From Kineosporiaceae bacterium (lineage in GTDB: Bacteria; Actinomycetota; Actinomycetes; Actinomycetales; Kineosporiaceae): DNA of 46,860 nucleotides. This document shows, piece after piece, positions 4,939 through 46,548 of the stretch (positions within the stretch are counted from its first letter, which is position 1; the number at the start of each line of letters is the position of its first letter). The position numbers and the translations under genes were made by a program. The DNA lies in assembly GCA_049283855.1 (NCBI GenBank), contig JBAPWU010000062.1, positions 1-46,860 on the forward strand, written 5' to 3'. The notes beneath the pieces are model-generated. The model saw nothing but the letters and a program-made list of their open reading frames with translations. It had not been told where the DNA came from and searched no databases.

Positions 4939-5012
4939 GGCCAGGTAGCTCAGTTGGTACGAGCGTCCGACTGAAAATCGGAAGGTCGGCGGTTCGACCC
5001 CGCCCCTGGCCA
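4939..5012 (+). tRNA. tRNA-Phe (anticodon GAA)
   Basis: Acceptor GGCCAGG/CCTGGCC, D-arm GCTCAGTTGGTACGAGC, anticodon arm TCCGA-CTGAAAA-TCGGA, T-loop TTCGACC, discriminator A. Confidence 0.92.
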
Positions 5013-5075
5013 CCGCCTCAAACCGCCCCTGAACTGCACAGACGTACATCTGTCGACGGATCACTTCTGTGGATC

Positions 5076-5114
5076 TCGCTCACATTCTGCTAACGATTGC
5101 TCACCGTTGCTCAC
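5076..5114 (+). repeat. cluster of three direct 8-mers (TCGCTCAC, TTGCTCAC, TTGCTCAC) overlapping the integrase stop codon
   Basis: Read directly: 5076-5083, 5097-5104, 5107-5114. The same motif recurs three times at 7459-7488 and once at 13583-13590. Confidence 0.6.
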
Positions 5115-5784
5115 GGGCGGTCGACCTGAACGCCGGCGATCGCGGTGGCCTGTGGCGGATGATCAGGTCGGTGGCCTGGTTGACCTGCTCGGCCGTGGGG
5201 TCGCGCAGGATGTGGGCGTACACCCGTTTGGTCACGCTCCGCGCGGCGTGCCCGAGGATCATCTGGACGACCTCCAAGGGGACGCCACCGGCGAGCGGCA
5301 GCGAGCAGGCACAGTGGCGCAGGTCGTGCAGCCGGATCGGCGGAAGCCCGCATGCCCTGACCAATCGGGAGAACTCGGCACTGACGGCGTTGGGGCGCGG
5401 TGGATCGCCGTGCGGGGTGGCGAACACCAGGTCGTGGTCGCGGTAGGTCCGTCGACGATCGACCGCCTGCGTCTTCACCGACCGCCCCGCCTCCACCTGC
5501 ATGCTCAGCCAGGTCTGCAGCCACCAGCCGAGCGTCAGGTCCCGGTCGTCCACCCAGACACCCGTGGCCAGCAGCGACAGCTCACCGGCCAGCACCTGCC
5601 CGGCCGCCTCCCTACTGGCGAACCCCGAGCGCACCACCTGCCGACGACGCTGACGCAGACCCGCCCCACGGGGGCCGACGTCGAAGGTGTACCCCCATGA
5701 TCCGTGCGGACGTCCGCAGTCCTTGACCCGCCGCCCGTCACCGTCGCGGCACTGGCACCGCTTGTACACCGACCCTCGAACCAC
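5101..5784 (-). pseudogene. tyrosine recombinase/integrase, apparently internally deleted
   Basis: GTG start at 5784 gives V-VRGSVYKRCQC (typical actinobacterial integrase N-terminus). The C-terminus has HDLRH ... LGH ... Y (box II). Only about 227 aa remain, and the segment that should carry the core-binding domain and the first catalytic Arg is missing between WWLQTWL and DLVFATPHGD. The 470-aa ORF in the track is an artefactual upstream extension. Confidence 0.6.
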
Positions 5785-5857
5785 CGCACACTCCCCTTCG
5801 CTCAGCCTGGATCCACCGACGCGATTCGAGCAGCAGCCGCGGGGTCGCCACTTCTCA

Positions 5858-5917
5858 GAGTTACCTGCGCTATCCCTACCACTAGCCCCTTTATGGATAG
5901 ACTTACGCAGGTAACTC
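5858..5917. promoter_or_regulatory. 12-bp inverted repeat (GAGTTACCTGCG / CGCAGGTAACTC) in the int-abiEi divergent intergenic region; candidate AbiEi operator
   Basis: Arms at 5858-5869 and 5906-5917, 36 bp apart. The right arm ends 3 nt before the GGGAGG RBS of abiEi. Confidence 0.4.
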
Positions 5918-5934
5918 AGAGGGAGGTCTGTCTC

Positions 5935-6564
5935 ATGCCCCGGCCGGTGACCCTGGTGGACCTGGACGGTCTCGGGCTGCCCGCCGCGTTCAGTACGTCC
6001 GCGGCGCTGGACGCCGGTCTGACCCGGCCGCTCTTGGACAGGCTCGTCCGGGACGGAGACCTGGAGCGGTTCGGGCGCGGGCTGTTCCTGCGCAGCGTCT
6101 ATGCCGACGGCATGGACACCGACCTGGTCGAGATCGCGGTCCGAGCGCCGTCGGCGACGATCTGCCTGACCAGCGCGCTGGCACGGCACGGCCTGACCGA
6201 CGAGATCCCCGCCGCGGTCGACATCGCGCTGCCGCGAGAGCACTGGCAGCCGAGGGTCGCGGCGCGGGTGGCGTGGCACCGGTTCGCCGAGGACAGCTTC
6301 ACCATCGGCCGGCACGACCTGCAGCTGACCGACCCCTCGGGGACGGCGGCGGCAGGGCCGCTGACGATCGGCCTGTACAGCGCCGAACGCAGCATCATCG
6401 ACGCCTTCCGCACCCGCGGCACTACCGGCTTCGACCTGGCCACCGACGCTCTGCGCCGCTGGCTGCGCGACCCCACCCACCAGCCCGCCGACCTCCTGAC
6501 CCTGTGCGAGCACTGGCCCCGAACCCTGACCGCATTGCGTACCGCGTTGGAGATCCTGCTCTGA
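5935..6564 (+). CDS. abiEi: AbiEi-family antitoxin/transcriptional regulator (type IV TA)
   Basis: ATG at 5935 with GGGAGG 8 nt upstream. Its stop overlaps the ATG of the downstream nucleotidyltransferase gene (TGATG). N-terminal wHTH-like segment followed by ICLTSALARHGLTDEIP...DIALPRE. Confidence 0.8.
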   Translation: MPRPVTLVDLDGLGLPAAFSTSAALDAGLTRPLLDRLVRDGDLERFGRGLFLRSVYADGMDTDLVEIAVRAPSATICLTSALARHGLTDEIPAAVDIALPREHWQPRVAARVAWHRFAEDSFTIGRHDLQLTDPSGTAAAGPLTIGLYSAERSIIDAFRTRGTTGFDLATDALRRWLRDPTHQPADLLTLCEHWPRTLTALRTALEILL

Positions 6565-7455
6565 TGGCCAACCCGAACCGCGACACCACCGCCGGCGCCG
6601 CCTTCATCGACCTGCGCGCCCTCGCCAAGATGCAGGGACGCAACGTCGCCGAGCTGCTCGATCTGTACCTGCTCGAAGGATTCCTCGGCCGCCTCGCTGG
6701 CAGCGACCACGGCCCGCACCTCGTCCTCAAAGGCGGCGCACTGCTCGCCGCCTACGGCACCCGTCGTCCGACCCGCGACGTCGACCTGCTCGCCACCGAC
6801 CTGCACATCGACACCGACACCGTCCTGGCACTTGTCCGCAACATCGCCGGCCTGCCCCGAGACGACGGCCTGGAGTTCGACCCCGCATCCGCGACCGCGC
6901 ACGTCATCCGCGACGACGACGAGTACTCCGGCGTCCGGGTCAGTATGACTGCCACCCTCGGCCGCGCCCGCCTCACCTTCCACGTCGACGTCAACGTCGG
7001 CGACCCGGTCTGGCCCGCACCCGGCCTGGTCGCCGTCCCCGGACTCCTCGGCGGACACGATCGAGCTGCTCGGCTACCCGCTGGCCGCCGTCTACGCGGA
7101 GAAGATCGTCACTGCCCTGCAACGCGGGACCGCGAACACCCGCTGGCGTGACTTCGCCGACGTCTACCTCCTACGCGGCCAGCAGGACCTCGACGGCACC
7201 GACCTCACCACCGCACTGCAGAAGGTTGCCGCGTACCGCGGAGTCACCCTCCGACCGCTATCTCAGGCGCTGGCCGGGTACGCCCCGCTCGGCCAGACCC
7301 GCTACCGCGCCTGGGTCCAACGGCGAGACCTCACCGACCGCCTCCCGCGCGAGTTCGCCGAGCTGCTCCACGGCGTCCAGCAGCTCGCCGACCCACCGCT
7401 CGCCGGCAACGCCCACAGCCGCACCTGGGACCACACCACGCTCGCGTGGACCTGA
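6564..7455 (+). pseudogene. abiEii: AbiEii/AbiGii-family nucleotidyltransferase toxin (DUF1814), frameshifted near 7059
   Basis: The frame from 6564 reads ...LVLKGGALLAAYGTRRPTRDVDLL...HVDVNVGDPVWP...LLGGH, then becomes nonsense. The +1 frame from 7060 continues IELLGYPLAAVYAEKIVTALQRGTANTRWRDFADVYLL... to a TGA at 7453-7455. Confidence 0.75.
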
Positions 7456-7670: not shown

Positions 7671-8525
7671 CTACTCCAGCGTTCCCAGATCCAGGAGGCC
7701 GGACCGCCAGGCTTGCTGCTCGGCGCGGACGAGTTCGAGGAGCCGACCGATCAGGTGGCGGCAGCTGTTGTATGCGTAGTAGTCACCGAATCCGGTGGCG
7801 TTGAAGACGATGCGCCCCTCGCCGGTCGCGAGGAGTTCCTGCGTGAGGCTTTCGTGTTGCTGGAACTTGACTCGAAGGAGCTGGATGATCGTCGCCTGAA
7901 GGGATGCGTCGCAGCCGTCGCGCGCTGCGGCCTCGCCGGCGAGGCGGGACAGTCCGTACGGGTTCGATTCGGCGAGAACCGCCTGGCGAACGCCAGGGTC
8001 CGTCGTCCGCAGCGCCCAGTACGCGTGCTCGACTGTCGGGTAGGTGACCCTGCCGATGCGGACCGGCGCCGGGTACTGCGTGTGCAGGGCGAGGATGCCG
8101 GGTGGATCAGGCCACCCGTTGTGGTGGAACGAACCCGGGACGACGACCGCTGCCGCGACGGGTGGGGTCCTTTCGGCCGACGCCTTCCGGCTCACAGCCC
8201 GGTCGGCGAAGTACTCGAGCGCCTGGCGACGTCGCTCGTCGGTGACGACCTTGCCCGCCAACTTCTTCCCGACGGGCGTGATGACGACCCGCAACGGCCA
8301 GTCCTTCGCGTCCTGGTCGCCGAGGACGTACATCCTGCGATGCACGGGAATGGTGTTGTACGCCTCCGCCAGGCGCTGCCGGTTGGCCTCGGACGGGTCG
8401 GCCAGGTAGGCCTCGAGCAGCTCCAGGCAGACGCCGCTGGAGTCAAGGCGGCCGTTGAGGATCTCGATCTCGTCGACGACCTCGCTGTACAGCCCATCGG
8501 CCTTCACCCACGACTCGACGTTCAT
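7671..8525 (-). CDS. NADAR (YbiA-like) domain protein with an N-terminal region of unknown function
   Basis: The C-terminal 150 aa fit the NADAR pattern: RVTYPTVEHAYWAL...RLAGE...LQATIIQLLRVKFQQHESLTQELLATG...IVF. The listed start is the Met created in the second copy of a 10-bp duplication. Confidence 0.7.
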   Translation of the reverse strand: MNVESWVKADGLYSEVVDEIEILNGRLDSSGVCLELLEAYLADPSEANRQRLAEAYNTIPVHRRMYVLGDQDAKDWPLRVVITPVGKKLAGKVVTDERRRQALEYFADRAVSRKASAERTPPVAAAVVVPGSFHHNGWPDPPGILALHTQYPAPVRIGRVTYPTVEHAYWALRTTDPGVRQAVLAESNPYGLSRLAGEAAARDGCDASLQATIIQLLRVKFQQHESLTQELLATGEGRIVFNATGFGDYYAYNSCRHLIGRLLELVRAEQQAWRSGLLDLGTLE

Positions 8526-8540
8526 GAACGTTCATGAACG
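8521..8540. repeat. perfect 10-bp tandem duplication TTCATGAACG x2
   Basis: Read directly. Removing one copy fuses the frame of ORF 8443-8676 to the NADAR ORF (…ASWTFMNVESWVKADG…). Confidence 0.9.
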
Positions 8541-8897
8541 TCCATGACGCGACCTCGTGCGCGAACGCGTGAGCGCCTTCCTTGAAGGTGGTCGCGACCC
8601 AGCCGCTGCGCAGCTTGACGCGGAACTCCTCGAGCGTCACAAGGCCCCAGCAGTCAACGAGCCCATCGGCGTACACGATCAGGTCAGTCAGGTAGTAGGA
8701 GCCGCCGTTGTTGATGAACGCATGTCTCCATGACCATCCGAACCGACGATGAAGTGGGTCTCGCCCGGTCGGACGTCGAGGACGTCGTAGTCGATCGAGG
8801 TCTTGTCTTCGACCCGTTCGGCAGTCGGACGAGCGCCCGCCCGTCGCGGGTCCTCGACGAACGTCACCGGGATCAGCGCGAGCTGGCCGGGCTCCAT
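8526..8897 (-). pseudogene. displaced 5' part of the NADAR-domain gene (two frame breaks)
   Basis: ATG at 8897 with GGAGGA upstream gives MEPGQLALIPVTFVEDP...FIVGSDGHGDM. A 1-nt frame change near 8718-8720 continues as AFINNGGSYYLTDLIVYADGLVDCWGLVTLEEFRVKLRSGWV...SWTFMNV, which the 10-bp duplication separates from the NADAR ORF. Confidence 0.4.
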
Positions 8898-9022
8898 GTA
8901 CTCCTCCGCAGATCGGTTACGTCGCGCAGTCTCTGAGCCAACCGCTCGCCGAGCAGAGGGCCACGGGGACAAGCCGTCCGATCACGTCGCGGTGCAGGAC
9001 GGCGTCCGGCGGCGCAGGTCGT

Positions 9023-10345
9023 TCAACCAGTGGCTGAGACGAGGTCGTTGGGGTGCCAGAGCCGGTCGATCGGCATGACGTGGATGCGGTCGTCGTGGGT
9101 ATAGGTGCGTTGTCCGGTGGTCAGGACGACGCCGGCGCTGAACCGCGGACCGAGGGCTTGGCGCAGCTGCCGCAGGCCCGCCGTGTCGGCACTGGTGGCG
9201 CGCTGGTTGGCCTTGACCTCGAAGGCGACGACCTGCCCGTCGTCGAACTCGGCGACGACGTCGACCTCGGTCCCGTCACTGGTCCGCCAGTGCCCGAGAG
9301 TGACCTGCTCGTCGAGCCAGGACGCCTGCTTGCGCAGCTCGCCAACGACGAAGGTCTCCAGCAGGTTGCCGAAGTCGCTGAGCGCTGCCGGTTCGGCGGT
9401 CGCGAGCTTGGCTGGGGTGATCCGTAGCAGCCGGGCGGCCAGACCAGAGTCGACCAGATGCACCTTGGGACGCACGCTGACCCGCGAGCGCAGCGTCTTA
9501 CCCCACCCGAGAAGGCGGACCACCAGGAACAGGTCTTCCAGGAGCCGCAGGTGCGCCTCGGCGGTCCGGCGGTCTACCCCGATCGACTCAGCAGCCTTGG
9601 TGATGTTGAGCAGTTGCCCGGTCTGTGATGCCAGCCGCGTCAGCAGGTCCGCCAAGGACTGCCGCTGGCGGACCTGGCTCAGCTCGAGGGCGTCACGCTC
9701 GACGGACTGGCGGACGAAGTCGTCGAACCATCGCGCCCGCGCGACGTCCGACCGCTTCACCGCCAGCGGCAGCCCACCGGCGCAGACCCGGGCGGCATAG
9801 CCCTCCCGCGCGGTGCCCGAGACCGGGTGCTGCGCGACGACGGCGCCCGGGTCAGCCCGCAGGCCCTCAAGAAGGTTCTCCCGGGTACCCGCGAGCTCCC
9901 CCTGCGACAGCGGCCAGATCGTGACCGTGTGGAGCCGCCCGGTCAGCGCCTGCGCGGTCGTCGGCAGCGCGTCCTGGCGTGTCGACCCGGTGATCACAGC
10001 GGTCCCGGCGCGACTGCCTTCGCGGTTTAGCCGGGTCTTGATCGCATCCAGAACGTCCGGCACCCGCTGGTACTCGTCGACGCACAGCGGCGCCGGGCCA
10101 CCGGTGACCAGAGCCAGGTTGCCGGCGACCGCCTCACGGGTCTCGACGTCGTCCAGATCGATCACCGGGACACCACGGTCACGGGCCAGGATCTGCAGCA
10201 CCGTGGACTTCCCCACCGACCGCGGCCCGTGCAGCGCAATCACCGGCTCCTCCGTCACCAACTGCGACAGCAGCACACTGACACGTCTCGCGATCAGTCC
10301 GGACTCATCAGCCACGAAGTCAAGGTACCAAATCTGAGCCGCCAA
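9023..10345 (-). CDS. AAA+ ATPase with C-terminal DUF4143/PD-(D/E)xK-like module (COG1373 type), paralog 1
   Basis: Walker A GPRSVGKST, Walker B LCVDEYQ, C-terminal EVDVV...FEVKAN. Confidence 0.85.
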   Translation of the reverse strand: MAAQIWYLDFVADESGLIARRVSVLLSQLVTEEPVIALHGPRSVGKSTVLQILARDRGVPVIDLDDVETREAVAGNLALVTGGPAPLCVDEYQRVPDVLDAIKTRLNREGSRAGTAVITGSTRQDALPTTAQALTGRLHTVTIWPLSQGELAGTRENLLEGLRADPGAVVAQHPVSGTAREGYAARVCAGGLPLAVKRSDVARARWFDDFVRQSVERDALELSQVRQRQSLADLLTRLASQTGQLLNITKAAESIGVDRRTAEAHLRLLEDLFLVVRLLGWGKTLRSRVSVRPKVHLVDSGLAARLLRITPAKLATAEPAALSDFGNLLETFVVGELRKQASWLDEQVTLGHWRTSDGTEVDVVAEFDDGQVVAFEVKANQRATSADTAGLRQLRQALGPRFSAGVVLTTGQRTYTHDDRIHVMPIDRLWHPNDLVSATG

Positions 10346-10626
10346 ACTGTACGTTCTTGAGGGCCCGAAGCGCTCAGATGTGAGCGCGAGACCCGCCAGT
10401 TGGCCGACTGCTGGCCAGCCGCCCGACTAGAGACCCGCTGTTGACGCACAGCGGCGTTGCTGAGCCAGCGGGTGCCCCCGAGCCCGCCTTGCCGGCCGAC
10501 CCGTCCGGCGGCCACCGACTCGCATCGACTCGTTGCGGTCAGTCTCGCCCAGGACACGCCCACAAGACCCGTTCAAGCTGGCCGACCAGCGCGTCACCGC
10601 AGGTCAGCGTCGTCCCGTCCCAGAAG

Positions 10627-10678
10627 GAGCGTCTGCTGAAAATCGGAAGGTCGGCGGTTGGACCCCGCCCCTAGCCAC
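10627..10678 (+). repeat. attR-like direct copy of the 3' half of tRNA-Phe
   Basis: GAGCGTCTGCTGAAAATCGGAAGGTCGGCGGTTGGACCCCGCCCCTAGCCAC versus tRNA 4961-5013. Differences: 3 substitutions and a 1-nt gap. Confidence 0.8.
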
Positions 10679-10973
10679 ACTTGATCAAGCCCTGACCTGC
10701 AGCTTTGCTGTTCTTGATCAATGCCTGGGGTATGCGATCGACCTTCTGAGGCTTATCAGGCGATCTGCACTTCTTGCGACATCGTTCGAGCGTCAACAGG
10801 GCGCTGACCTGCGGTTTCACCGACAGTGGCCGACGGCAGTTCCACGCGCATCTGGCCTGCGCTCTCCCGCCAGTGTCGAAATCGTGTCGAAGTCCGCCCC
10901 TCCGCGAGATACCCCCGGTGGGTACTCGGCAGAGGTCGGCGCGGTCTTCCGGAGATCATCGGTGGCTTGCATC

Positions 10974-11906
10974 TCACGTGGCGCGTGGACGTCGCGCGTG
11001 GCGCGTGCGCCGGTAGGCCTCGACGGACTTGCGGGAGCTGCGCCAGACGCCGTCCGGGCCCTGGACGGCGTCCAGGCGGCCTCGTTGGGCGGCTTGGCGC
11101 AGCGCCGCGACGCTGAAGTCGTCATCGGCCAACGCCGCGAGGGGGACCAGCCGGGCCGGGCCGGCCACATCGGGGACGATGAACCGATTCAGGTTGTCCA
11201 GCATGGCCCGCGCGATCAACTCCCCCAGCGGACCGTGGTCACCGGCATCGGACTTCGTCATTGCCGCCAGATACGCGGACCGCTGCTGCTTGAAGATGAT
11301 CACCGGTGGGTAGCCCAGCCGGACCAGGACGAGGTTGAGCACCAGTCGGCCGGTGCGGCCGTTGCCGTCCAGGAACGGGTGCACACACTCAAACCCGTTG
11401 TGCAGCCGCGCAAGCTCCTCCGGCAGCGGCGCACCCAGAGCCGCGTCGTCGCGGACCGTGCGGCCCAGCACCCGCACCTGGTCCCCCCATGACGTGATCT
11501 GTGCCGGCACGTCCGGCCAGGGCGGTGGCGTCATCCCGGCCTGGAACGGGCGGATGTCATGGCGGCGGAAGCTGCCCGGCCCCTCCTGATCGGTCGCCTC
11601 CGGGTGCGGCGCGACTCCCCAGACCGGGCTGATCGCCAGATGGTGGATCCGGCGCACCTCATTTACGGTGATCAACTCGCCGTCGTTCCAGGCATCCGGC
11701 TCCAGGGCCTGCCCGTAGACCCACCTGGCAGCGTCCGCGTAGCCCTTGACCACCATGTACTCACTCAACGGCTTGGCGCCCACCGCCCGGCCCCGCTCCA
11801 GCAGCGCCTCGACCTCGCGCAACACCAGGGTGTTGCCCTCCAACGCCGTGGAGTGGTGGGCCTCCCGGTGCCAGATGACCCGGGCATGCCCATTCGTACA
11901 CTTCAA
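10974..11906 (-). CDS. Fic family protein (canonical AMPylation motif, N-terminal inhibitory-helix motif)
   Basis: HPFLDGNGRTGR matches HxFx(D/E)GNGRxxR. HSTALEGN near the N-terminus matches the (S/T)xxxE(G/N) autoinhibition motif. C-terminal wHTH-like tail. Confidence 0.85.
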   Translation of the reverse strand: MKCTNGHARVIWHREAHHSTALEGNTLVLREVEALLERGRAVGAKPLSEYMVVKGYADAARWVYGQALEPDAWNDGELITVNEVRRIHHLAISPVWGVAPHPEATDQEGPGSFRRHDIRPFQAGMTPPPWPDVPAQITSWGDQVRVLGRTVRDDAALGAPLPEELARLHNGFECVHPFLDGNGRTGRLVLNLVLVRLGYPPVIIFKQQRSAYLAAMTKSDAGDHGPLGELIARAMLDNLNRFIVPDVAGPARLVPLAALADDDFSVAALRQAAQRGRLDAVQGPDGVWRSSRKSVEAYRRTRHARRPRAT

Positions 11907-11954
11907 AGGTGCCGAAATGTCAAATAGGGGCCCGACCGATGGTTAGATAGACAG

Positions 11955-13226
11955 GTGGAGTACCGACGCCGCGTCGTGGACGACGAACTGGACGCACTGT
12001 TGCCCAGCCTCGCCGCGATCTCACTCGAGGGCGCCAAAGGCGTGGGCAAGACAGCGACTGCGACGGGTCGCGTGCGAACGGTTCTGGCCCTCAACGATCC
12101 GCGACAACGCCAGGTCGTCGCCGCCGACCCCGGGCTCATCGGACGCGCCGAGCCGCCCGTCCTGCTCGATGAGTGGCAACTCGAACCGACTGTCTGGGAC
12201 CAGGTGCGCACGCTGGTGGACGCCGACCCCAGCGGCGGCCGCTTCCTGCTCACCGGCTCGGCCGGCCCGACCCGAGAGGCACGGATCCACTCCGGCGCCG
12301 GCAGGATCGTCCGCTTGGTGATGCGGCCCCTTGCCCTGTCCGAGCGCGGCCTCGTCCCACCGACGGTGTCCTTGGCCGGGCTGCTGACCGGGGCCCGGCC
12401 AACGGTCACCGGAGATTCTCCGATCGACCTGGCCACCTACACCGATGAGATCCTGCGGTCGGGCTTTCCCGGGATCCGCCCGCTGCCACCACGGCCACGC
12501 CGCATCCAGCTCGACAGTTACCTCGCCCGCGCCCTCGATCACGATATGGAGGAGAACGGGATCCGTGTGCGCAAGCCGGCCGCGTTGCGGGCATGGCTCA
12601 CCGCCTACGCCGCGGCGACCGCAACCACTGCCGCCTACAACGTCATCCTGGACGCGGCAACGCCCGGCGACGGCGACAAACCGACTCGCCAAACCGTCGC
12701 CGTCTACCGGGAGAGCCTCGAACGGCTCTTCCTGCTCGACCCCCTGCCCGCATGGGTGCCCAGCCTGTCCCCGCTGAAGCGCCTGACCGCCTCCCCCAAA
12801 CACCACCTGGTCGACCCTGCACTGGCCGCCCGCCTGATCGGCGTCGATGCGTCCGCGCTGCTCCGCGGGGCCGGTGACCGGCTGGCACCCAACGACGGAC
12901 CTCTCCTCGGCGCACTGTTCGAATCCCTTGCCGTCCAGACCGTCCGAGTGCTCGCCCAAGCCGCCGAAGCCCGAGTCCACCACCTGCGCACCAAGAGCGG
13001 CGATCACGAGATCGACATCGTCATCGAGGGGCCAGACCGGCGTATCGTGGCCGCCGAAGTCAAACTCAACCCCGTCGTCACCGATGACGACACCACCCAG
13101 TTGCGCTGGCTGCACAACACCATCGGCGAACGAGCAGCCGACCTCATCGTCCTCACCACAGGCCCGCACGCCTACCGGCGCCCGGACGGCATCGCCGTCA
13201 TCCCACTGACACTCCTCGGCCCCTGA
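11955..13226 (+). CDS. AAA+ ATPase with DUF4143/PD-(D/E)xK-like module, paralog 2
   Basis: GTG start. Walker A GAKGVGKTA, Walker B VLLDEWQ, C-terminal EIDIV...AEVKLN. Divergent from the Fic gene with only 48 bp between the starts. Confidence 0.8.
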   Translation: MEYRRRVVDDELDALLPSLAAISLEGAKGVGKTATATGRVRTVLALNDPRQRQVVAADPGLIGRAEPPVLLDEWQLEPTVWDQVRTLVDADPSGGRFLLTGSAGPTREARIHSGAGRIVRLVMRPLALSERGLVPPTVSLAGLLTGARPTVTGDSPIDLATYTDEILRSGFPGIRPLPPRPRRIQLDSYLARALDHDMEENGIRVRKPAALRAWLTAYAAATATTAAYNVILDAATPGDGDKPTRQTVAVYRESLERLFLLDPLPAWVPSLSPLKRLTASPKHHLVDPALAARLIGVDASALLRGAGDRLAPNDGPLLGALFESLAVQTVRVLAQAAEARVHHLRTKSGDHEIDIVIEGPDRRIVAAEVKLNPVVTDDDTTQLRWLHNTIGERAADLIVLTTGPHAYRRPDGIAVIPLTLLGP

Positions 13227-13527
13227 ACAGACGGGGCTGCCCGGGGGACCTGGACGCCGACACCCTCACCCGCTACCGCCGCGTCCTCGGCGACGACGCC
13301 CCCACACTCGGCAGTCGGGCAGCAACCTCCCGGCGCCTGCGCAGCCTCGGCCGCGACGACGACGCACGGCGCGATCGAGGTCGATCGATATCACCATCGA
13401 CCTCTACGGCCCATGGGTCTGATTGCGACCGTTCGTCGCGACCACAGCCCTACACCGCCACATGGGTCCGGGCAGAGCCGGCGTCCAGCCGTCACCAGAC
13501 GTACCCGACCGGCTGTGGCTGTCCGCG

Positions 13528-13563
13528 CCACATCCACGCCACATCCACGCCACATCCACGCCA
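13528..13563. repeat. 11-bp tandem repeat CCACATCCACG x3.3
   Basis: Read directly. Non-coding, 70 bp upstream of the eroded tRNA-Phe fragment. Confidence 0.9.
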
Positions 13564-13630
13564 GAATCGAAGATCTACTTCTTTGCTCACCGCATCGCCG
13601 CAGGTCACAGCCTCGCAGACGCCAATCGCA

Positions 13631-13656
13631 CGTCCTGCCTGAGAATCGGAAGGTCG
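13631..13656 (+). repeat. eroded copy of the tRNA-Phe anticodon-arm/variable region (old att remnant)
   Basis: CGTCCTGCCTGAGAATCGGAAGGTCG versus tRNA CGTCCGACTGAAAATCGGAAGGTCG. Exact 13-mer AATCGGAAGGTCG plus matching flanks, in the same orientation. Confidence 0.5.
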
Positions 13657-13761
13657 AGGCGCTCCTGCGTTGGCCCTGATCGTGCACGCCACCCCGGCAG
13701 GCACGTCTGCGCAGGAGACGCTCGACTTCCTTACCCGCCGGGCCGTCGGCCGCTGTCAGCG

Positions 13762-15009
13762 TCATCCGGCCCATAGCGCGTCCATCGGGACAGCGGTGAT
13801 CCGATCACCGAATGGAGCGGCCGTCGCCCCGGTGTGCAGGACCACTCCAGCGACGAAACGAACGCCGAGGCTGTCTCGCAATTGGGTCAGCCATCGGACA
13901 TCACGGCCGGAGACGCTCGAGGTTGCCTTCACCTCGATCCCGGCAACCCTGCCGTCTCCGGTCTCCAGCACGAGGTCAACCTCGGCGCCGCCGTGGTCTC
14001 GATAGTGATACAGACGCGCATCCTCGTCAGCCCAGGACAGCTGCCGCCGAAGTTCTCCGGCGACGAACCCCTCAAGGATCTGTCCAGCTATCAACGGGTT
14101 AGCCGCACCTGCAGCACCGGCAGGAGTCACGTTCACCAGCCGCGCGGCAAGCCCGGCGTCCAGGAGAGCAACCTTCGGACGGGACACCACACGCTTGGAC
14201 AGGTTCGTTGACCATGCCGGGATCCGGTGGACAAGGAACAGCGTCTCAAGCAGATCCACGTAGGGCGCCAGCGTGCGGACCGGGATCCCCGCATCACTTG
14301 CCAGCGAGGCCAGGTTCAGCTCGGCAGCGTTCCGGGCCGCGAGCAGCCGGAGCAGGCCGGGCAGCTCCGACAGGCGTTGCAGGCCGGACACATCCGGCGC
14401 ATCGCGCTCCACGACGCGCCGAAGGCAATTGTCCAGCCAGGCCGATCGGCGCCGTCCGGTGCGAGACAACGCCTCCGGGTAACCACCCGCACATGCCACG
14501 TCGATATAGTCCGGCCGGGTCATATCGCTGCGGTGGGCGGTGAAGTCCTCGCCCGCCAGGAGCCGGTCCACGAACCGCTCCCGCCTGCCCGACAGCTCTC
14601 CCTGGCTGAACCCGAACAGGTCCAGGCTCTCGGCTCGGCCCGCCAGGCTGTCCTGCATTGCGGGTAGCCGCAGCAGGTTCGCCGACCCGGTGAGCAGGAA
14701 GCGTCCTGGACGCTGGTCCCGGTCCACGACAAGCTTCAACGCGAGCACCAGCTCCGGAACCCGCTGCACCTCGTCGATCGCCAGCAGATCGTCCCCGGCC
14801 TGACCCAGAAACGCCACGGGGTCCAACTGGGCACCGGCACGAGTGGTCTCGTCGTCGAAGGTCACCAGCCGCCCGCCGACCTGATCCACCACATGCGACA
14901 CCAACGTCGTCTTGCCAACCTGACGGGCGCCCTGGACGACCACCACGCGCGTATCTGCCAGCGAGTCCAACACCGATGACGCCACATGCCGCGCAACAAC
15001 CTTCTTCAC
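13762..15009 (-). CDS. AAA+ ATPase with DUF4143/PD-(D/E)xK-like module, paralog 3
   Basis: Walker A GARQVGKTT, Walker B LAIDEVQ, C-terminal EVDLV...IEVKAT. Confidence 0.85.
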   Translation of the reverse strand: MKKVVARHVASSVLDSLADTRVVVVQGARQVGKTTLVSHVVDQVGGRLVTFDDETTRAGAQLDPVAFLGQAGDDLLAIDEVQRVPELVLALKLVVDRDQRPGRFLLTGSANLLRLPAMQDSLAGRAESLDLFGFSQGELSGRRERFVDRLLAGEDFTAHRSDMTRPDYIDVACAGGYPEALSRTGRRRSAWLDNCLRRVVERDAPDVSGLQRLSELPGLLRLLAARNAAELNLASLASDAGIPVRTLAPYVDLLETLFLVHRIPAWSTNLSKRVVSRPKVALLDAGLAARLVNVTPAGAAGAANPLIAGQILEGFVAGELRRQLSWADEDARLYHYRDHGGAEVDLVLETGDGRVAGIEVKATSSVSGRDVRWLTQLRDSLGVRFVAGVVLHTGATAAPFGDRITAVPMDALWAG

Positions 15010-15043
15010 GCCGCAAGACTACGGCCCACCCAGGGATGTTCTC

Positions 15044-15096
15044 GCCGTTTTTCCAACATCTACTCGCCGATTTTCCACCATCTACTCGCCGATCCA
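15044..15096. repeat. 22-bp tandem repeat (GCCGWTTTTCCAMCATCTACTC) x2.4 at the junction with the truncated abiEi copy
   Basis: Copies at 15044-15065 and 15066-15087, with a partial third copy. Confidence 0.85.
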
Positions 15097-15107
15097 GAGC
15101 CCTGGAA

Positions 15108-15630
15108 GGGGCGGCTGGGCCGCGGCGTTCTCCCGCGAGGCGGCTCCGCGGAGGTGGTGGACACCGACCTCGTCGAGATCGCCGTCCGTGCGCCGGCGGC
15201 GACGATCTGCCTGACCAGTGCCCTGGCCCGGCACGGGCTCACCGACGAGATCCCCGCTGCGGTGGACATCGCACTGCCCCGCGAGCATTGGCGTCCCACC
15301 GTCGCGGCCCGCGTGGCCTGGCACCGGTTCGCCGAAGACACCTTCACGATCGGGCGGCAGGAGCTGACCGTGGCCGGTTCGGGGACGACCGGCACCGTGG
15401 CCACCGGCACAGCGACGACGGGCGCCGTGACGATCGGCCTGTACAGCGCCGAACGCAGCATCATCGACGCCTTCCGCACCCGCGGCACCACCGGCTACGA
15501 CCTCGCCATCGAAGCCCTACGCCGGTGGCTGCGCGACCCCTCCCACCAGCCCGCGAGGCTGCTCTCGCTCTGCGAGCACTGGCCAAGGACACGAACCACC
15601 CTGCGCAACGCCCTGGAGATCCTGATCTGA
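15108..15630 (+). pseudogene. 5'-truncated second copy of abiEi
   Basis: The translation from VVDTDLVEIAVRAPAATICLTSALARHGLTDEIPAAVDIALPREHW... is highly similar to 5935-6564, but the N-terminal wHTH part is missing. Nucleotide similarity runs from about 15159. Confidence 0.7.
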
Positions 15631-15687
15631 TGGGCCAACCCGAACCGGGACACCACCGCCGGAGCCGCGTTCATCGACCTGCGTGCC
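15630..15687 (+). pseudogene. about 60-bp 5' stump of a second abiEii copy
   Basis: Same TGATG stop/start overlap. ATGGGCCAACCCGAACCGGGACACCACCGCCGG... matches 6564-6620 with an extra G that breaks the frame. Similarity stops near 15687. Confidence 0.6.
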
Positions 15688-15817
15688 CAGTCCCAGGGCT
15701 GGAACGCCGCCCTCGGCGAACTCGCCCTGATCTACCCCGACCGGATCACCAGCTACCTGCAACAGCAAGATCAAATAGAGTCAGAGCGACTCTTGAACAA
15801 GGAGGTTGACAGACTCC

Positions 15818-18800
15818 TCACAGGGGCTGGAGGCCCAGGGTGCCGACCAGGTCGGCCTGGTAGGCGGGCTTGGACACCCGCGCCAACTCGGCGTGGATCT
15901 GCTGCAGGTTGCGCTGCACGTGCAGCCGTTCGGCCGTGTCGACGTTGGTCTCGCCGGACTGAAACCGCTCCAGCCGCGCAGCCGCCCGCTTGTAGTGCTC
16001 CACGTCGTACTGCTGCTTGGCCGCCAACCGCTGCGCGTACCACGAGCTGGCCAGCACGCTGTCGCGGGTGAATTGCGCGCGCAGTTCGGGCGAGCGGACG
16101 GTCCAGCCCTCCTCGGAGGCTCCGGTGGCCATGAACTGCAGCAGCGACCGCAGCGGTGGCACGGCGAGCGCGATGGTGTCGTCGTCGATGAACGACTGGG
16201 CGACCCGGCGATGCGTCTCGACGATGACCTCGATGCTGTCGGCGTAGACGTCGGCGTCCTGCAGTTCGGGGGCCAGCATCTCGTCGGTGAACACCGTGTC
16301 CGGGTGCAGGAAGATGCGCGCGAAGAAGGTCGTGGCGAACCGGCGATTCATCCGGTGTCCGAGTCGTCCGGCCTCGACGGTGCGCCCGTTGCGCTCGACG
16401 TCGGGCACGGCGTCGAGGTAGCCGTTCTCCCTGAGCCACGATGCGTCCCGCTCGCGCGGTGACATACGGCTGAACAGTTCCGGCACGAGCAGGCTCACGT
16501 CGTGGTCGACCCGGACCCTGGGCCCGATGAAGCCCGCGCTGGAGATCCAGCCGTCGTACCCGGTCAACGCATAGCTGAGGAAGGAGGCGTTCAGGTCGAT
16601 GATCGAGGGCAGCATGTTGAAGGGGCCCTTGGTCAGCGCACCCTCGGAGCCGGCGCCGGTGGTGGACGGCGACTTGCCGGTCATCGAGCTGATGAACTCC
16701 ATGAAGAGCTCGGGCAGCTCCATGTAGTGCAAGGGGTTGTACGAGCACAGGGCCGGCGCGTCCGCCTCGGGCGCGTTGTTGCGCCGTCCGGCGGCCACCA
16801 CATCGACCGCCAGCGGAGCGAACTCGGCCAGCGGCCTGTGGTGCAGAAGGTGACTGGCGATGTCCGCGAGCTGGGTGGCCACGGGGTTGGCCCGGTCAGG
16901 GCGCACCTGCAGGTAGCGGGGGTTCTTGCTGGGGCGCCCGCCCACCAGGCGCGGCTCGGAGGAGCTCGCGACGTACTCCGGTGATCCCTCACCCGCGGCG
17001 AAGCGGGCCAGCAGGTCCTTCATCGGATCGGTGAACCGGCTGAACGAGACGGCGTCCTGCACCAGCGCCGTAGCCTCGGGCCGGGTGATCGGGGCGAAGT
17101 TCGACAGGAACGTGCCAGGAGTGGCGATGTCGCGCTCGGCCTGCTTGTCGTAGCCGCGGTGGATCGCGTCGTCCGGACGCTGGAACAGCAGTTGCTCGCA
17201 GTTGGCGACGTACTTCCGGGACAGGGTCTCCTGGCCGGCTGCCTCGCTCCGGGCCTGCTGCAGACCGCGGCGGTGGCTGAAGTCCGGCGGCGGCTCGTCC
17301 GCCGGCAGCACGACGCTCGCCGTGATGTCGTCCTCGGTCTGGACCTTCACGGCGGGGCTGAAGTCGGGGCGCAGCGTGAACAGCCGCCAGGAGCCGTCCT
17401 GCTGGAAGCCCATCCGGAGCATGTTGACGATGATCAGCTCACCGTCGAGCCGGACCCGGCTGCCTGGTCGTCCGTTGATGTTGCTGACCGAGAAGTGCCG
17501 GCGCCAGTCCTGACCCCACTCGGGCCGGTAGTACTTCTTCACCAGGAAGAGCAGTTCCTTGACGTGAGGCGGGATGGCGCGCAGCCGCTCGTTGTGCGCG
17601 TCGGCGAAGTCCGGGCTCGGGGTGAGCAGCTTGACCACGCTGCCGAGACTGCGCTCGGGGGAGAGGATCGGGCGGTGGTCACGGTTCCACGACGGGTCGC
17701 GGTAGCGGTCGGCGAAGTCGGTGGCGATCAGTTCGGCGACCGCCTCGATGTCGCTGTCGAAGTCCTGGATCGCGGTGTGGCCGAAGACGAACGCATCCAG
17801 GAGTGACTTGCTGATCTCGCTCTTGCCTCCGCCGGAGACCGTGGCCGGCTTGTGGCACTGGGTCGAGATCGGTGAGATCCCCAGCAGGTGCCACTGCGTC
17901 CGGTCGGCCTCGCGCGGCTTGGCGAGCACCCGGTAGCCGTTGGGTGTCATGTAGACGTGGCCGGCCCGCAGCGGGATGGTGAACTTCTCGCCGCTGCGTC
18001 CGGTCCAGGTCACACTGCGGCGTGGCAGGCTGAACGAACTGCCGGCCGGAACGAGGATGAGCTCGGCCAGCCGGGTGTCGAGCGCATGGCCCTCGGTCTG
18101 GAGCGCGAACCGGTCGGGGTTGGTCGTGACCACTTCGTTGATCGAGTACTCCGCCGGAGTGAAGGTGTCGGTGTACTCCTGGCCCAGGTTGTAGGAGGGG
18201 TAGCAGATGGCGCCGCCGGAGTGCTCCTCCTCGGCGAGACCGAACAGATTCGCGGCGTAGCTGATCTGTGTCTTCACCTCCTTCTTGCAGTAGCCGAAGT
18301 AGTTGTCCGCGATGACCGTGACGACGACGCCGCGGGCGTCGCGCGCACAGACCTTGAACGCCTGGCCGCGGTTGTAGCGCTCGTCGGGCGTCGCCCAGCA
18401 CATGCCGTCCCGCTTCTGGCGGTCGGTGGCCTGATCGAGGTGTGGCAGGCCCAGCTCCTGCTTGGTCAGCGTGGTCAGGTGCGGCGCCAGGATGACGCAG
18501 CCGGTGTGCCCGGTCCAGGTGACCGGGGTCAGCGAGGCATCGTTCTCCGGCAGGTAGGGGTCGCCCCCATTGCCGAAGATCCCCTCGACGAAGTCCAGGT
18601 TGGCCACCAGGCCGCCGGGCACGATGAAACGCGTCTCCATCGAGCGGGCCACGGGCACCTTCGCGGTGGCGGGCACGACCAGGGGGCGCAGCAGGAGCGA
18701 GACCCAGGTGCGGGCCGGCTCGGGGGAGGTCGCCGTCCAGGGCAGCACCAGATCGTCGGCCGCCGGCTGCAGCGCCGACGCGAGCAGGCGGGCGAAGACG

Positions 18801-19246
18801 TCCTTCGGCACCGCGACCTTGTCGTCCTGGATCGGCAGTCCGCCCTCGGCGATGTGGAACACCCCGGCGGTCGTGCGCCGGTCGTTGGCCGGGTTGTGCA
18901 GGACGCCATTGGCGAGCCGGTAGCTGGAGATCAGGCGCGAGGTGAACGCGTCGGAGTCGCGGGGCAGCGAGAGTTCCCGGGCGAGTCCCGGCTCGTCGAG
19001 CACCAGGGTGCGCCGTGGCAGTTGCGGCTGCACGGGGCTGTCCGCGAGGAAGGAGTCGAGGAACGCCTGGATGCGCCGGTCCGCCGCACACGGGCGGTCG
19101 GCAAGGCGTCGGCTCAGCTCGCGGTTGCGGGCCAGGACGGGGGAGACCAGACGGAACGGCTCCTCGGCGGCGGCGCCCGGGGGAAGTGGCAGCCCCGACA
19201 TGGCCAACCGCAGCATGATCGCGCTGGACCCGTGGACGTCAGACAT
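15818..19246 (-). CDS. 1142-aa protein, tentatively PPi-dependent phosphoenolpyruvate carboxykinase (EC 4.1.1.38)-like
   Basis: Uninterrupted high-GC3 ORF of about 126 kDa, the size class of PPi-PEPCK known from Propionibacterium, Actinomyces and Entamoeba. P-loop-like SGGGKSE and a conserved-looking block ADNYFGYCKKEVKTQISYAANLFG. The CDS is certain; the product call comes from memory of the family. Confidence 0.5.
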   Translation of the reverse strand: MSDVHGSSAIMLRLAMSGLPLPPGAAAEEPFRLVSPVLARNRELSRRLADRPCAADRRIQAFLDSFLADSPVQPQLPRRTLVLDEPGLARELSLPRDSDAFTSRLISSYRLANGVLHNPANDRRTTAGVFHIAEGGLPIQDDKVAVPKDVFARLLASALQPAADDLVLPWTATSPEPARTWVSLLLRPLVVPATAKVPVARSMETRFIVPGGLVANLDFVEGIFGNGGDPYLPENDASLTPVTWTGHTGCVILAPHLTTLTKQELGLPHLDQATDRQKRDGMCWATPDERYNRGQAFKVCARDARGVVVTVIADNYFGYCKKEVKTQISYAANLFGLAEEEHSGGAICYPSYNLGQEYTDTFTPAEYSINEVVTTNPDRFALQTEGHALDTRLAELILVPAGSSFSLPRRSVTWTGRSGEKFTIPLRAGHVYMTPNGYRVLAKPREADRTQWHLLGISPISTQCHKPATVSGGGKSEISKSLLDAFVFGHTAIQDFDSDIEAVAELIATDFADRYRDPSWNRDHRPILSPERSLGSVVKLLTPSPDFADAHNERLRAIPPHVKELLFLVKKYYRPEWGQDWRRHFSVSNINGRPGSRVRLDGELIIVNMLRMGFQQDGSWRLFTLRPDFSPAVKVQTEDDITASVVLPADEPPPDFSHRRGLQQARSEAAGQETLSRKYVANCEQLLFQRPDDAIHRGYDKQAERDIATPGTFLSNFAPITRPEATALVQDAVSFSRFTDPMKDLLARFAAGEGSPEYVASSSEPRLVGGRPSKNPRYLQVRPDRANPVATQLADIASHLLHHRPLAEFAPLAVDVVAAGRRNNAPEADAPALCSYNPLHYMELPELFMEFISSMTGKSPSTTGAGSEGALTKGPFNMLPSIIDLNASFLSYALTGYDGWISSAGFIGPRVRVDHDVSLLVPELFSRMSPRERDASWLRENGYLDAVPDVERNGRTVEAGRLGHRMNRRFATTFFARIFLHPDTVFTDEMLAPELQDADVYADSIEVIVETHRRVAQSFIDDDTIALAVPPLRSLLQFMATGASEEGWTVRSPELRAQFTRDSVLASSWYAQRLAAKQQYDVEHYKRAAARLERFQSGETNVDTAERLHVQRNLQQIHAELARVSKPAYQADLVGTLGLQPL

Positions 19247-19559
19247 GGGACACCCCTACATCAGTGCTCCGGCGCTCGCCCGTGGTCGGAGGAGGCCTCA
19301 GATGGAATGACTCGGGAGGGAGTCGGCGTCATTGCCCGGAGGTCCGGGCGGGCCGGCCGTCTCCGTTGCCGGCGGGGAGCCCCCTGCCCCTGGCCAGCCG
19401 TCTGAGAAGCTACCAGGTGTCCTTCGGCGCCGGGGCCAACGGTCCCGCAACAGCAGGTGTCCTGTGTGGGACCCTGCGGATGCGCCTCAGGCGGGCTCGG
19501 CGACCATGTCCACGTCCACCGAATCGAGCGGGATCCTCTCGTACAGCGGTGGCTCCTGG

Positions 19560-20072
19560 TCAGGGTTGAGAGCTGTCGGCCGTAGATCTACTCCGTGACC
19601 GAGTAGTCGAGGGGTGTCGCGGGCCCCGTGGGTACTCCCGAAGCCCGACCGCGCCTTCCCGCGGGCGACGTGCCCGCCGTGTCCACCACGGTGGCGTCGG
19701 GGGTGGGGGTAGGGGTCCGCGTGGGGGTGCTTGGAGGGCTTGCAGGAGTAGCTGGGTGGTGCGCGTCCACGCGTCGGGGGCGGCATCTCCGGTGGCGTTG
19801 ATGACGCCGGCGTTGGCCATCAGGACGAGCGGGAGGTCCTCGGTGCTGAAGTCCTTGCTCAGTCGTCCAGCCTTCTTCGCGTGTTTGACGAGCAGTGTGA
19901 AGCGTAGGACGACGCGGTCGCGGATCTCCTGGAACTGGGGCGACATCGGGAAGGTCATGGTCAGGACGTCGGTGAAGCCGTGATCGTCGGCCTGCATCTG
20001 GCACAGCCGCTCGACATACCAGGAGAACCCGTCGCACTGACCGGGCAGGTCGAGCGTCCCGGGGGAATCCGG
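19560..20072 (-). pseudogene. possible remnant of a TetR-family regulator (C-terminal ligand domain only)
   Basis: …HGFTDVLTMTF...FQEIRDRVVLRFTLLVKHAKKAGRLSKDFSTEDLPLVLMANAGVI...PDAWTRTTQLLLQAL resembles a TetR C-terminal domain. There is no HTH upstream (stop at about 20073) and the tail is Pro/Arg-rich read-through. Confidence 0.3.
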
Positions 20073-26965: not shown

Positions 26966-27351
26966 CGGGAGGCGTCTCGCTCGAACGGTGACGAGACGTG
27001 GTTCCCCGTCTGTTCGACCACGAAGGCCCCGGGTCCGTTGTCACCGTGACGGACGTCTGGCACGACGAAGATCATGTTCTACACTCCCTCAGCGGTTTCG
27101 ACCGGCACGCAGCCTGAGCCGGGGCCGACGAATGCAGGCATGAGCGATCGTGCCGAGCCACGACACCGACCCAACCGCGGTGTCGGAGTGCGACCGCCGC
27201 CGCGCGCACTGCCCGGCGATGAGGCACTCCCCCACAGTCCGTCGCTCCATCGTCACGACGTCAAGGACCGATGGCTCATCACCGGGGCGGCAGCCACAAG
27301 CCATTCGATGACGAAGTGACGTTCGAGCTCGCAGCGTCGGGTTGTCACTCA

Positions 27352-46510: not shown

Positions 46511-46548
46511 CGCCCTCCTTCGCCCTTCTTCGCCCTCCTTCGCCCTCC
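46511..46548. repeat. 10-bp tandem repeat CGCCCTYCTT x3.8 immediately after the GH63-like stop codon
   Basis: Read directly: cgccctcctt cgcccttctt cgccctcctt cgccctcc. Confidence 0.85.

Follow-up and report, generated by a model that had tools for sequence, protein, structure and literature searches.

Three diverged PDC-S01-type ATPase genes in a decaying array of tRNA-Phe cassettes of a Kineosporiaceae bacterium, and phased repeats upstream of genes of their family

PDC-S01 genes emerged from a 'guilt-by-embedding' screen of genes that lie embedded within BREX, DISARM and type I restriction-modification loci, and have the status of candidates (bioRxiv 10.1101/2024.01.29.577857). They have been ranked as the fourth most common predicted prokaryotic defence, an ATPase fused to a PD-(D/E)xK domain (PMC12988326), and are among the most frequent 'defence systems' in genome surveys (PMC12988326, PMC13356809), while DUF4143/COG1373 was assigned to the PD-(D/E)xK superfamily in 2012 (PMC3424549). 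Tandem tRNA and tmRNA islands and integrase-less cis-mobilizable elements that arise by accretion have also been described (PMC5704250), as have the ssrA islands of Dehalococcoides (PMC3146451) and defence cargo on integrated elements (PMC10201445). Here we analysed a stretch of 46,860 nt, contig JBAPWU010000062.1 of a Kineosporiaceae bacterium (the window; coordinates are window positions), in which three genes of the AAA_14-DUF4143 (PDC-S01) type, named A, B and C, lie within 6 kb in an island at a tRNA-Phe gene. Segments 1 to 3 are the parts of this island set off by copies of the attachment site (att), and labels such as L192, L089 and L007 denote comparator loci from other genomes. The three genes are as follows.

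9023-10345, minus strand: gene A, AAA_14 + DUF4143 (PDC-S01); open reading frame (ORF) of 440 aa, probable start GTG at 10315 (430 aa)
11955-13226, plus strand: gene B, AAA_14 + DUF4143 (PDC-S01); 423 aa, the most divergent copy
13762-15009, minus strand: gene C, AAA_14 + DUF4143 (PDC-S01); 415 aa, the best match to the family model

An earlier note on this DNA had described three paralogous ATPase genes, and the profile search that was run bore this out, since ORFs are present at these positions and all three proteins matched AAA_14 (PF13173) and DUF4143 (PF13635) above the Pfam gathering cut-offs of 27 and 28.1 bits, respectively. The scores for AAA_14 and DUF4143 were 66.9 and 142.1 bits in A, 33.0 and 89.8 bits in B and 87.8 and 139.0 bits in C, and the ATPase precedes DUF4143 in each of them; NCBIfam contained no model for A, B or C. 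The start of gene A at GTG 10315 is favoured by the database call P0121 (430 aa) and by the position of the upstream repeats described below. PADLOC model PDLC04790 (PDC-S01) was matched with E values of 2.5e-135 (A), 5.5e-71 (B) and 8.8e-163 (C), about 410 of its 422 positions being covered by each protein, and each is a stand-alone gene. As these matches are full length, A, B and C belong to a family that is already catalogued as a widespread phage-defence candidate, and their membership of the COG1373/AAA_14-DUF4143 family is close to certain. Their single-gene layout and their fusion of an ATPase to a PD-(D/E)xK domain are those of PDC-S01, from which the architecture is no different; what is particular to the present case is the presence of three diverged copies in one tRNA-Phe array and the clade-specific repeats upstream.

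Pairwise protein identities were 39% (A-C), 29% (A-B) and 31% (B-C), and the nearest relatives of the three proteins fall in different lineages and contexts, so that A, B and C were acquired independently and are diverged paralogs rather than recent duplicates, as the earlier note had also held. The closest relative of C, a 90% homolog from a Kineosporiaceae metagenome-assembled genome, lies between RecBCD-like genes and LtrA, and the 84% nucleotide homology of C to locus L001 covers only the ORF and 86 nt upstream of it, ending at 15095. Relatives of A with 81-93% identity come from Dermatophilaceae and Kineosporiaceae, where they occupy unrelated loci, and a 97% homolog of B lies on a 2.08-Mb contig at the locus here called L192. 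A phmmer search placed the family at 18,668 clusters (50% identity) at E <= 0.001 and 8,375 at E <= 1e-10. An exact look-up of protein C in the contig index gave no entry. No further family copy was found in the 46.9-kb window, and a second family gene within about 6 kb was present at only 4 of 98 homolog loci, which makes three in 6 kb unusual.

The motifs Walker A (GxxxVGK[ST]), Walker B (DE) and E-[VI]-D ... E-V-K are identical across A, B and C, and their retention, another claim of the earlier note, extends nearly without exception to 94 homologs of 39-100% identity in which residue conservation was counted (numbering of gene C). K33, D79, R125, E313 and D345 were present in 94/94, K361 in 93/94 and E359 in 92/94, and G27..G32-K33-[ST], D79-E80, T107-G108-S109 and R125 were invariant. 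The hallmarks of an AAA+/ASCE P-loop ATPase are thus all found, that is Walker A and B, a sensor-1-like polar residue, a conserved arginine and a helical lid; R125 may be the arginine finger.

The AlphaFold2 model of C had a mean predicted local distance difference test (pLDDT) score of 91.4 and a predicted template modelling (pTM) score of 0.91. Fold matches of the full-length model included RuvB, PABY2304 (PDB 2qen, second best), RFC, ORC/Cdc6/DnaA and STAND proteins, a pattern that points to an ASCE ATPase carrying a lid and a winged helix. The winged helix is consistent with a weak sequence match between residues 213-294 and a MarR regulator. The C-terminal 120 residues follow the alpha-beta-beta-beta-alpha-beta order of the PD-(D/E)xK core (helix 305-324, strands 331-337, 343-350 and 355-360, helix 368-384, strand 385-392), with the putative nuclease residues E313 in the first helix, D345 in strand 2 and E359-V-K361 in strand 3. 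A separate model of this domain (pLDDT 84) matched nearly exclusively PD-(D/E)xK proteins, among them Cas4 SSO0001, the AdnAB nuclease domain, Hjc resolvases, NucS/EndoMS, MspJI, McrC and tRNA-splicing endonucleases. The nuclease-like C-terminal fold proposed earlier is therefore borne out by the predicted topology, with weak fold matches, and each of A, B and C is predicted to combine an ATPase core, a lid, a winged helix and a PD-(D/E)xK nuclease-like domain in one polypeptide.

Several described groups share parts of this plan. Proteins of the PABY2304 type of Pyrococcus abyssi (ATPase_2/Arch_ATPase + DUF234), archaeal-type Walker ATPases whose tail is PD-(D/E)xK-like, likewise have an ATPase followed by a helical/winged-helix part, and L089 carries one such gene at a distance of 2 kb from its C-clade gene; they belong, however, to other Pfam families, and A-C have no sequence-level match to any PDB chain. 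Orc1/Cdc6 and DnaA initiators and iteron-regulated rep genes are alike in the AAA+ core, the lid, the winged helix and the repeats beside their own gene, but initiators carry no nuclease domain, and neither an AT-rich unwinding element nor a replication module was seen at this locus; the resemblance concerns the working principle only and no membership is claimed. STAND proteins (Avs, NLR-like) also join an ASCE NTPase to a nuclease, and weak fold matches to Apaf-1, plant NLRs, MalT and Avs5 were obtained. On the contrary, A-C are of 415-440 aa and without a C-terminal repeat sensor (TPR, WD40, LRR), the nuclease occupying the position of the STAND sensor. Membership of STAND was rejected, as Pfam reported only AAA_14 and DUF4143 and the model of C is fully accounted for without a repeat domain.

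Inspection of the DNA upstream of the three genes revealed phased direct repeats, which are listed below.

15036-15101, minus strand: three phased direct repeats of 22 nt, core AAATCGGCGAG, 5' of C (TRF; conserved with C-clade homologs)
10316-10384, minus strand: two to three degenerate phased repeats of 23 nt, core CTCA..TTTGG, directly 5' of A
11907-11954, plus strand: promoter region of B with two imperfect units of about 22 nt (CCGA..ATG...A.ATAG), conserved in L192

The core AAATCGGCGAG was found in three to four copies at 22-nt spacing 5' of every C-clade homolog examined (L001, L087, L088, L089, L187, L188 and L191), while A-clade genes carry two to five copies of CTCA[CG][GA]TTTGG at 23-nt spacing that are cleaner than those of A itself, and another protein clade has the upstream core CGGCAGATC. 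Arrays were also present at L102, L104, L105, L193 and the metagenome loci L107-L186, and a family gene on a Pseudomonas plasmid carries an array of the same kind. In a survey of phased 9-mers in the 180 nt 5' of the start of 92 family genes, at least three phased copies were detected in 30 and at least two in 69, while at least three were seen in 0/85 downstream regions, 0/92 shuffles and 3 of 360 windows drawn at random from these loci. The repeat motif varies between protein clusters and is constant within them, and motif similarity was correlated with protein identity (Mantel-type rho 0.47; reached in 0 of 2000 permutations). No description of upstream phased repeats was found in the literature searched, and the upstream repeat arrays of PDC-S01 genes are a new observation of this analysis.

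Downstream of the genes with at least three upstream repeats no second array was found except at L089, and the repeat motifs were not found in the att regions. A two-ended, transposon-like element was considered and rejected because the arrays are single and upstream and the motif matches elsewhere are scattered background. At L089 the C-clade gene occupies exactly the interval between two identical full-length tRNA-Phe genes. Each of these belongs to a duplicated unit of about 245 nt that consists of tRNA-Phe, a hairpin resembling a terminator and four 22-nt repeats, at positions 6751-6995 and 8305-8545 of that locus. The downstream array there is an orphan, and the whole tRNA is duplicated, unlike at an integrase att site.

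Because the motif co-varies with the protein clade, the repeats may be read as self-operators to which the winged helix of the gene's own product would bind as a phased oligomer. The account that we favour, with as much doubt as belief, is that A, B and C encode DNA-binding, oligomeric ATPase-nucleases that repress themselves through the array, act on incoming DNA and are carried as cargo of tRNA-Phe cassettes. Successive small cassettes would have been placed in the tRNA-Phe 3' end by a tyrosine integrase, and their cargo comprises A, B and C together with the abortive-infection or toxin-type genes AbiE, Fic and NADAR. The winged helix would bind the gene's own upstream array as an ATP-dependent oligomer and so repress the gene, and assembly of the oligomer at other places would then allow the nuclease to act on DNA that enters from a phage, a plasmid or a rival element. 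Repeat binding by the protein, control of its own gene, nuclease activity and a role in defence are all inferred, and the defence role of A, B and C is not close to certain.

An extension of this account, which we think improbable, is that PDC-S01 proteins are iteron-binding AAA+ nucleases in which coupling to the self-operator, a clade-specific array of 22-23 bp units, is part of sensing and goes beyond mere housekeeping repression. Disturbance of the oligomer-DNA complex, for instance, would then titrate or displace the protein, so that the gene would be derepressed and active nuclease released. If true, such iteron-coupled sensing would represent a novel operating principle for immune or exclusion systems of one gene, and would explain how three paralogs with three operator motifs coexist without cross-talk.

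A number of observations weigh against the favoured account. Shared ancestry of the linked DNA contributes to the correlation between motif and clade, the array of A is degenerate and that of B consists of two imperfect units only. The fold matches of the nuclease-domain model are weak (best E 3.3e-3, TM about 0.45-0.5), and no solved homolog structure was found by sequence or profile search. No family member with demonstrated activity was found in the literature searched, and the only experiment found, with a PDC-S01 gene from a cold seep expressed in E. coli B, gave protection against T4, T5 or T7 by four candidates, of which this gene was not one (PMC12881386); a single E. coli test with these phages is uninformative for actinobacterial genes. 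Most of the close homologs examined stand alone in the midst of metabolic genes, and one position of a family gene is syntenic between Promicromonospora and Isoptericola, as is expected of a stable chromosomal gene rather than of a defence cassette.

An alternative is a non-immune, sequence-specific DNA-binding ATPase, such as a regulator or a DNA-processing or repair factor, which spreads easily and whose presence in the island would be incidental. The operator-like phased repeats, the solitary and syntenic contexts, the copy adjoining RecBCD-like genes and the negative phage test in E. coli all suit such a protein, as does the lesser association of PDC systems with other defence systems than is seen for classical ones (Payne et al., bioRxiv 10.1101/2024.01.29.577857). 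The invariance of the nuclease catalytic residues, on the contrary, argues against it, as do the patchy, transfer-prone distribution with 90%-identical copies at unrelated loci, the members in or beside restriction-modification systems and the occurrence of the family on plasmids, and we regard this explanation as rather doubtful.

The contexts of the homologs otherwise varied. Restriction genes of type I or type ISP, a Schlafen-like gene, or clusters of integrases and toxin-antitoxin pairs lie beside some members, and no general tie of the family to defence neighbours was seen across the homolog loci. A general link to tRNA genes was rejected, as a tRNA was present in the flanks of 4/87 loci. 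The family was detected on 376 of 72,556 plasmids (0.5%), in 5 of 50,697 phage records, all of them unannotated faecal contigs, and at 11 loci in IMG/VR, several at contig ends; a phage-borne gene was rejected since the family is nearly absent from phage records. Of the proposal in the earlier note that the genes act in defence or against mobile elements, or in maintenance of the element itself, the part concerning their position stood, as they are cargo of att-bounded segments, but the defence idea was already present in the literature and in PADLOC, and the family as a whole is tied neither to tRNAs nor to defence neighbours.

The island in which A, B and C are found follows a cluster of tRNA-Glu, tRNA-Asp and tRNA-Phe genes, and its other features are given here in order.

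4939-5014, plus strand: tRNA-Phe (GAA), the integration target (ARAGORN, Rfam); its 3' 43 nt (4971-5013) are the att core and the left island end
5101-5703, minus strand: tyrosine integrase remnant reading towards tRNA-Phe (PF00589, E 6.9e-14, profile positions 71-168 of 172 only)
5704-6564, plus strand: AbiEi antitoxin-like gene of segment 1 (AbiEi_4; 98% nucleotide identity to L192)
6561-7455, plus strand: AbiEii pseudogene of segment 1; profile split over two frames, one extra A at 7060 in comparison with the intact copy of L192
7671-8730, minus strand: DUF7638-DUF7639-NADAR gene, split (Pfam; TRF)
10560-10678, plus strand: att2, with a copy of the tRNA-Phe 3' end at 10636-10678 (41/43) and the arm CGTCACCGCAGGTCA at 10592-10606
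10974-11906, minus strand: Fic-domain gene matching the PDC-S04 and SoFic models; native N-terminus and promoter lost
13593-13656, plus strand: att3, a partial att remnant, with 13639-13656 (17/18) and the arm motif CATCGCCGCAGGTCA at 13593-13607
14986-15630, plus strand: second AbiEi, about 80% nucleotide identity to the first (PADLOC AbiEi, repeats); true start probably near 15108
15627-15800, plus strand: 5' stump of a second AbiEii (repeat 93%), truncated after about 55 codons at the island's right edge

Repeats of the tRNA-Phe 3' end gave three matches in the window against 0.01 expected, and the similarity of att2 to tRNA-Phe extends back to about 10624. Homology with L007, which carries a 94% ortholog of the right-flank gene, begins at the stop of that gene at 15818, and therefore the island spans 5014 to about 15800; the DNA shared with L007 is 15818-19609 only. 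No right-hand att or arm of segment 3 was found, this segment ending in the AbiEii stump at the stop of the flanking gene. The window outside the island is ordinary chromosome, and none of the 80 loci recovered by a scan of genome contigs for the right-flank gene had a tRNA-Phe nearby.

The earlier note had named NADAR, Fic and AbiE genes as the neighbours, and all three are present, but several are damaged: the NADAR gene is split, AbiEii is frameshifted and Fic has lost its N-terminus. The NADAR gene is interrupted by a 10-bp tandem duplication, two copies of CGTTCATGAA at about 8526-8545 (region 8518-8547), and deletion of one copy in silico restores the ORF; its NADAR domain match of 32.3 bits is below the Pfam cut-off of 35.1. 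A second frameshift near 8725 is possible in this gene.

Comparison with L192 revealed how the array has been reshaped. The modules common to the window and L192 are 94-98% identical in DNA, and the order in L192 is att_a, an intact integrase of 393 aa, AbiEi-AbiEii, att_b, an ORF of 229 aa, an alpha/beta-hydrolase gene, Fic (341 aa), att_c, B and chromosomal genes of the TetR type. Relative to L192 the window integrase has lost 744 nt internally, the two blastn blocks being window 4964-5470 and 5464-5576, which correspond to L192 2800-3308 and 4052-4164. An 816-nt deletion in the window has removed att_c and the N-terminus of Fic and has fused Fic to the promoter of B, the homology of the window Fic to the L192 Fic stopping at 11877. 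A conserved Fic-B pair was accordingly rejected, as att and about 800 nt lie between these genes in L192 and the Fic homolog of L046 has no family gene adjoining. In L192 an additional degenerate att-like piece (AATCGGAAGGTCG) occurs at 9868-9893, about 110 nt 5' of B, besides att_c.

A conserved arm (TCGAAGAACCAC ... CATCnnCGCAGGTCA) is found 40-85 nt 5' of each non-tRNA att copy in both the window (10560-10623 and 13563-13638) and L192 (2731-2806, 5869-5944 and 9524-9599) and is missing upstream of tRNA-Phe itself. The presence of the arm beside every non-tRNA att and not beside the tRNA indicates that those att copies are the true right ends of related elements, and the arm probably holds the integrase/excisionase arm sites of one element family. 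Just 5' of the arm motif of att3, between B and att3, an 11-nt tandem repeat (TCCACGCCACA, 3.8 copies) is located at 13522-13563.

The island is a decaying, reshuffled stack of small cassettes, and its anatomy is close to certain. It shares with the tandem tRNA islands the repeated tRNA 3' ends, an arm before each, one integrase or integrase remnant by the tRNA, integrase-less cassettes and a cargo that varies between close genomes; it differs in that its cassettes are very small (about 1.5-5.6 kb), its integrase is defective and no conjugation or mobilisation genes were seen.

By count, each att-delimited segment does carry one family gene, as the earlier note had remarked, but this arrangement is contingent: L192 has neither A, nor the NADAR gene, nor C, so that B is the only family gene there in spite of three att copies, and the window has lost the att between Fic and B. 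Moreover att3 is a partial remnant and segment 3 lacks a right border. We judge it somewhat probable that three copies, one per segment, are an accident of accumulation at a hotspot and of deletions, since two segments of L192 have no family gene, the 816-nt deletion erased a boundary in the window, and the integrase, AbiEii and NADAR genes have decayed. The rarity of a second family gene nearby (4/98 loci) and the independent ties of the family to tRNA-Phe at L089 and L192 speak against a mere accident.

Service to the cassettes themselves, the genes stabilising them or excluding rivals at the tRNA-Phe att, for instance by cutting attP-bearing DNA, is suggested by the location of A, B and C in att-bounded cassettes beside toxin-antitoxin-type genes, by B in the same array in L192, by the C-clade gene between two tRNA-Phe copies in L089 and by an A-clade homolog among integrases and three toxin-antitoxin pairs. 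We nevertheless consider it unlikely, given that the family has no general association with tRNAs, that many homologs lie in non-mobile, syntenic and metabolic contexts and that the repeat motifs do not occur in att regions.

It is hardly credible that A, B and C have lost their function and are decaying along with their neighbours. The island is clearly degrading, and the integrase, AbiEii and NADAR genes beside them are broken; A, B and C are all intact, with ORFs of full length, the profile covered end to end and all catalytic residues kept. Between gene B and its L192 ortholog 40 synonymous and 11 non-synonymous codon differences were counted, and, as this comparison of codons indicates, gene B is under purifying selection, which is strong.

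A few further observations were made in the window. The right-flank gene (15818-19246, minus strand) encodes 1142 aa without a Pfam match and is conserved at 58-94% in Propionibacteriales, Actinomyces, Accumulibacter and Propionivibrio, its neighbours not being conserved. Its size and distribution recall the pyrophosphate-dependent phosphoenolpyruvate carboxykinase of propionibacteria, of which it may be a counterpart. The AT skew is unusually high (0.29) and the GC content lower at 26001-27000, and a 10-nt tandem repeat (CGCCCTCCTT, 3.8 copies) lies at 46511-46548 near the window end. A scan of 8900-15200 for promoter and terminator consensus sequences gave no match, sigma-70 rules being poorly suited to a high-GC actinobacterium.

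The locus adds no new kind of system. The window and L192 constitute a natural comparison, in which family genes have remained intact amid decay while a near-identical array has only one of them. The clade-specific repeats predict the DNA sequence that each protein would recognise, so that assays of binding, autoregulation and nuclease activity are easily designed, and if the repeats are self-operators, the meaning of 'defensome' counts that include PDC-S01 would become testable.

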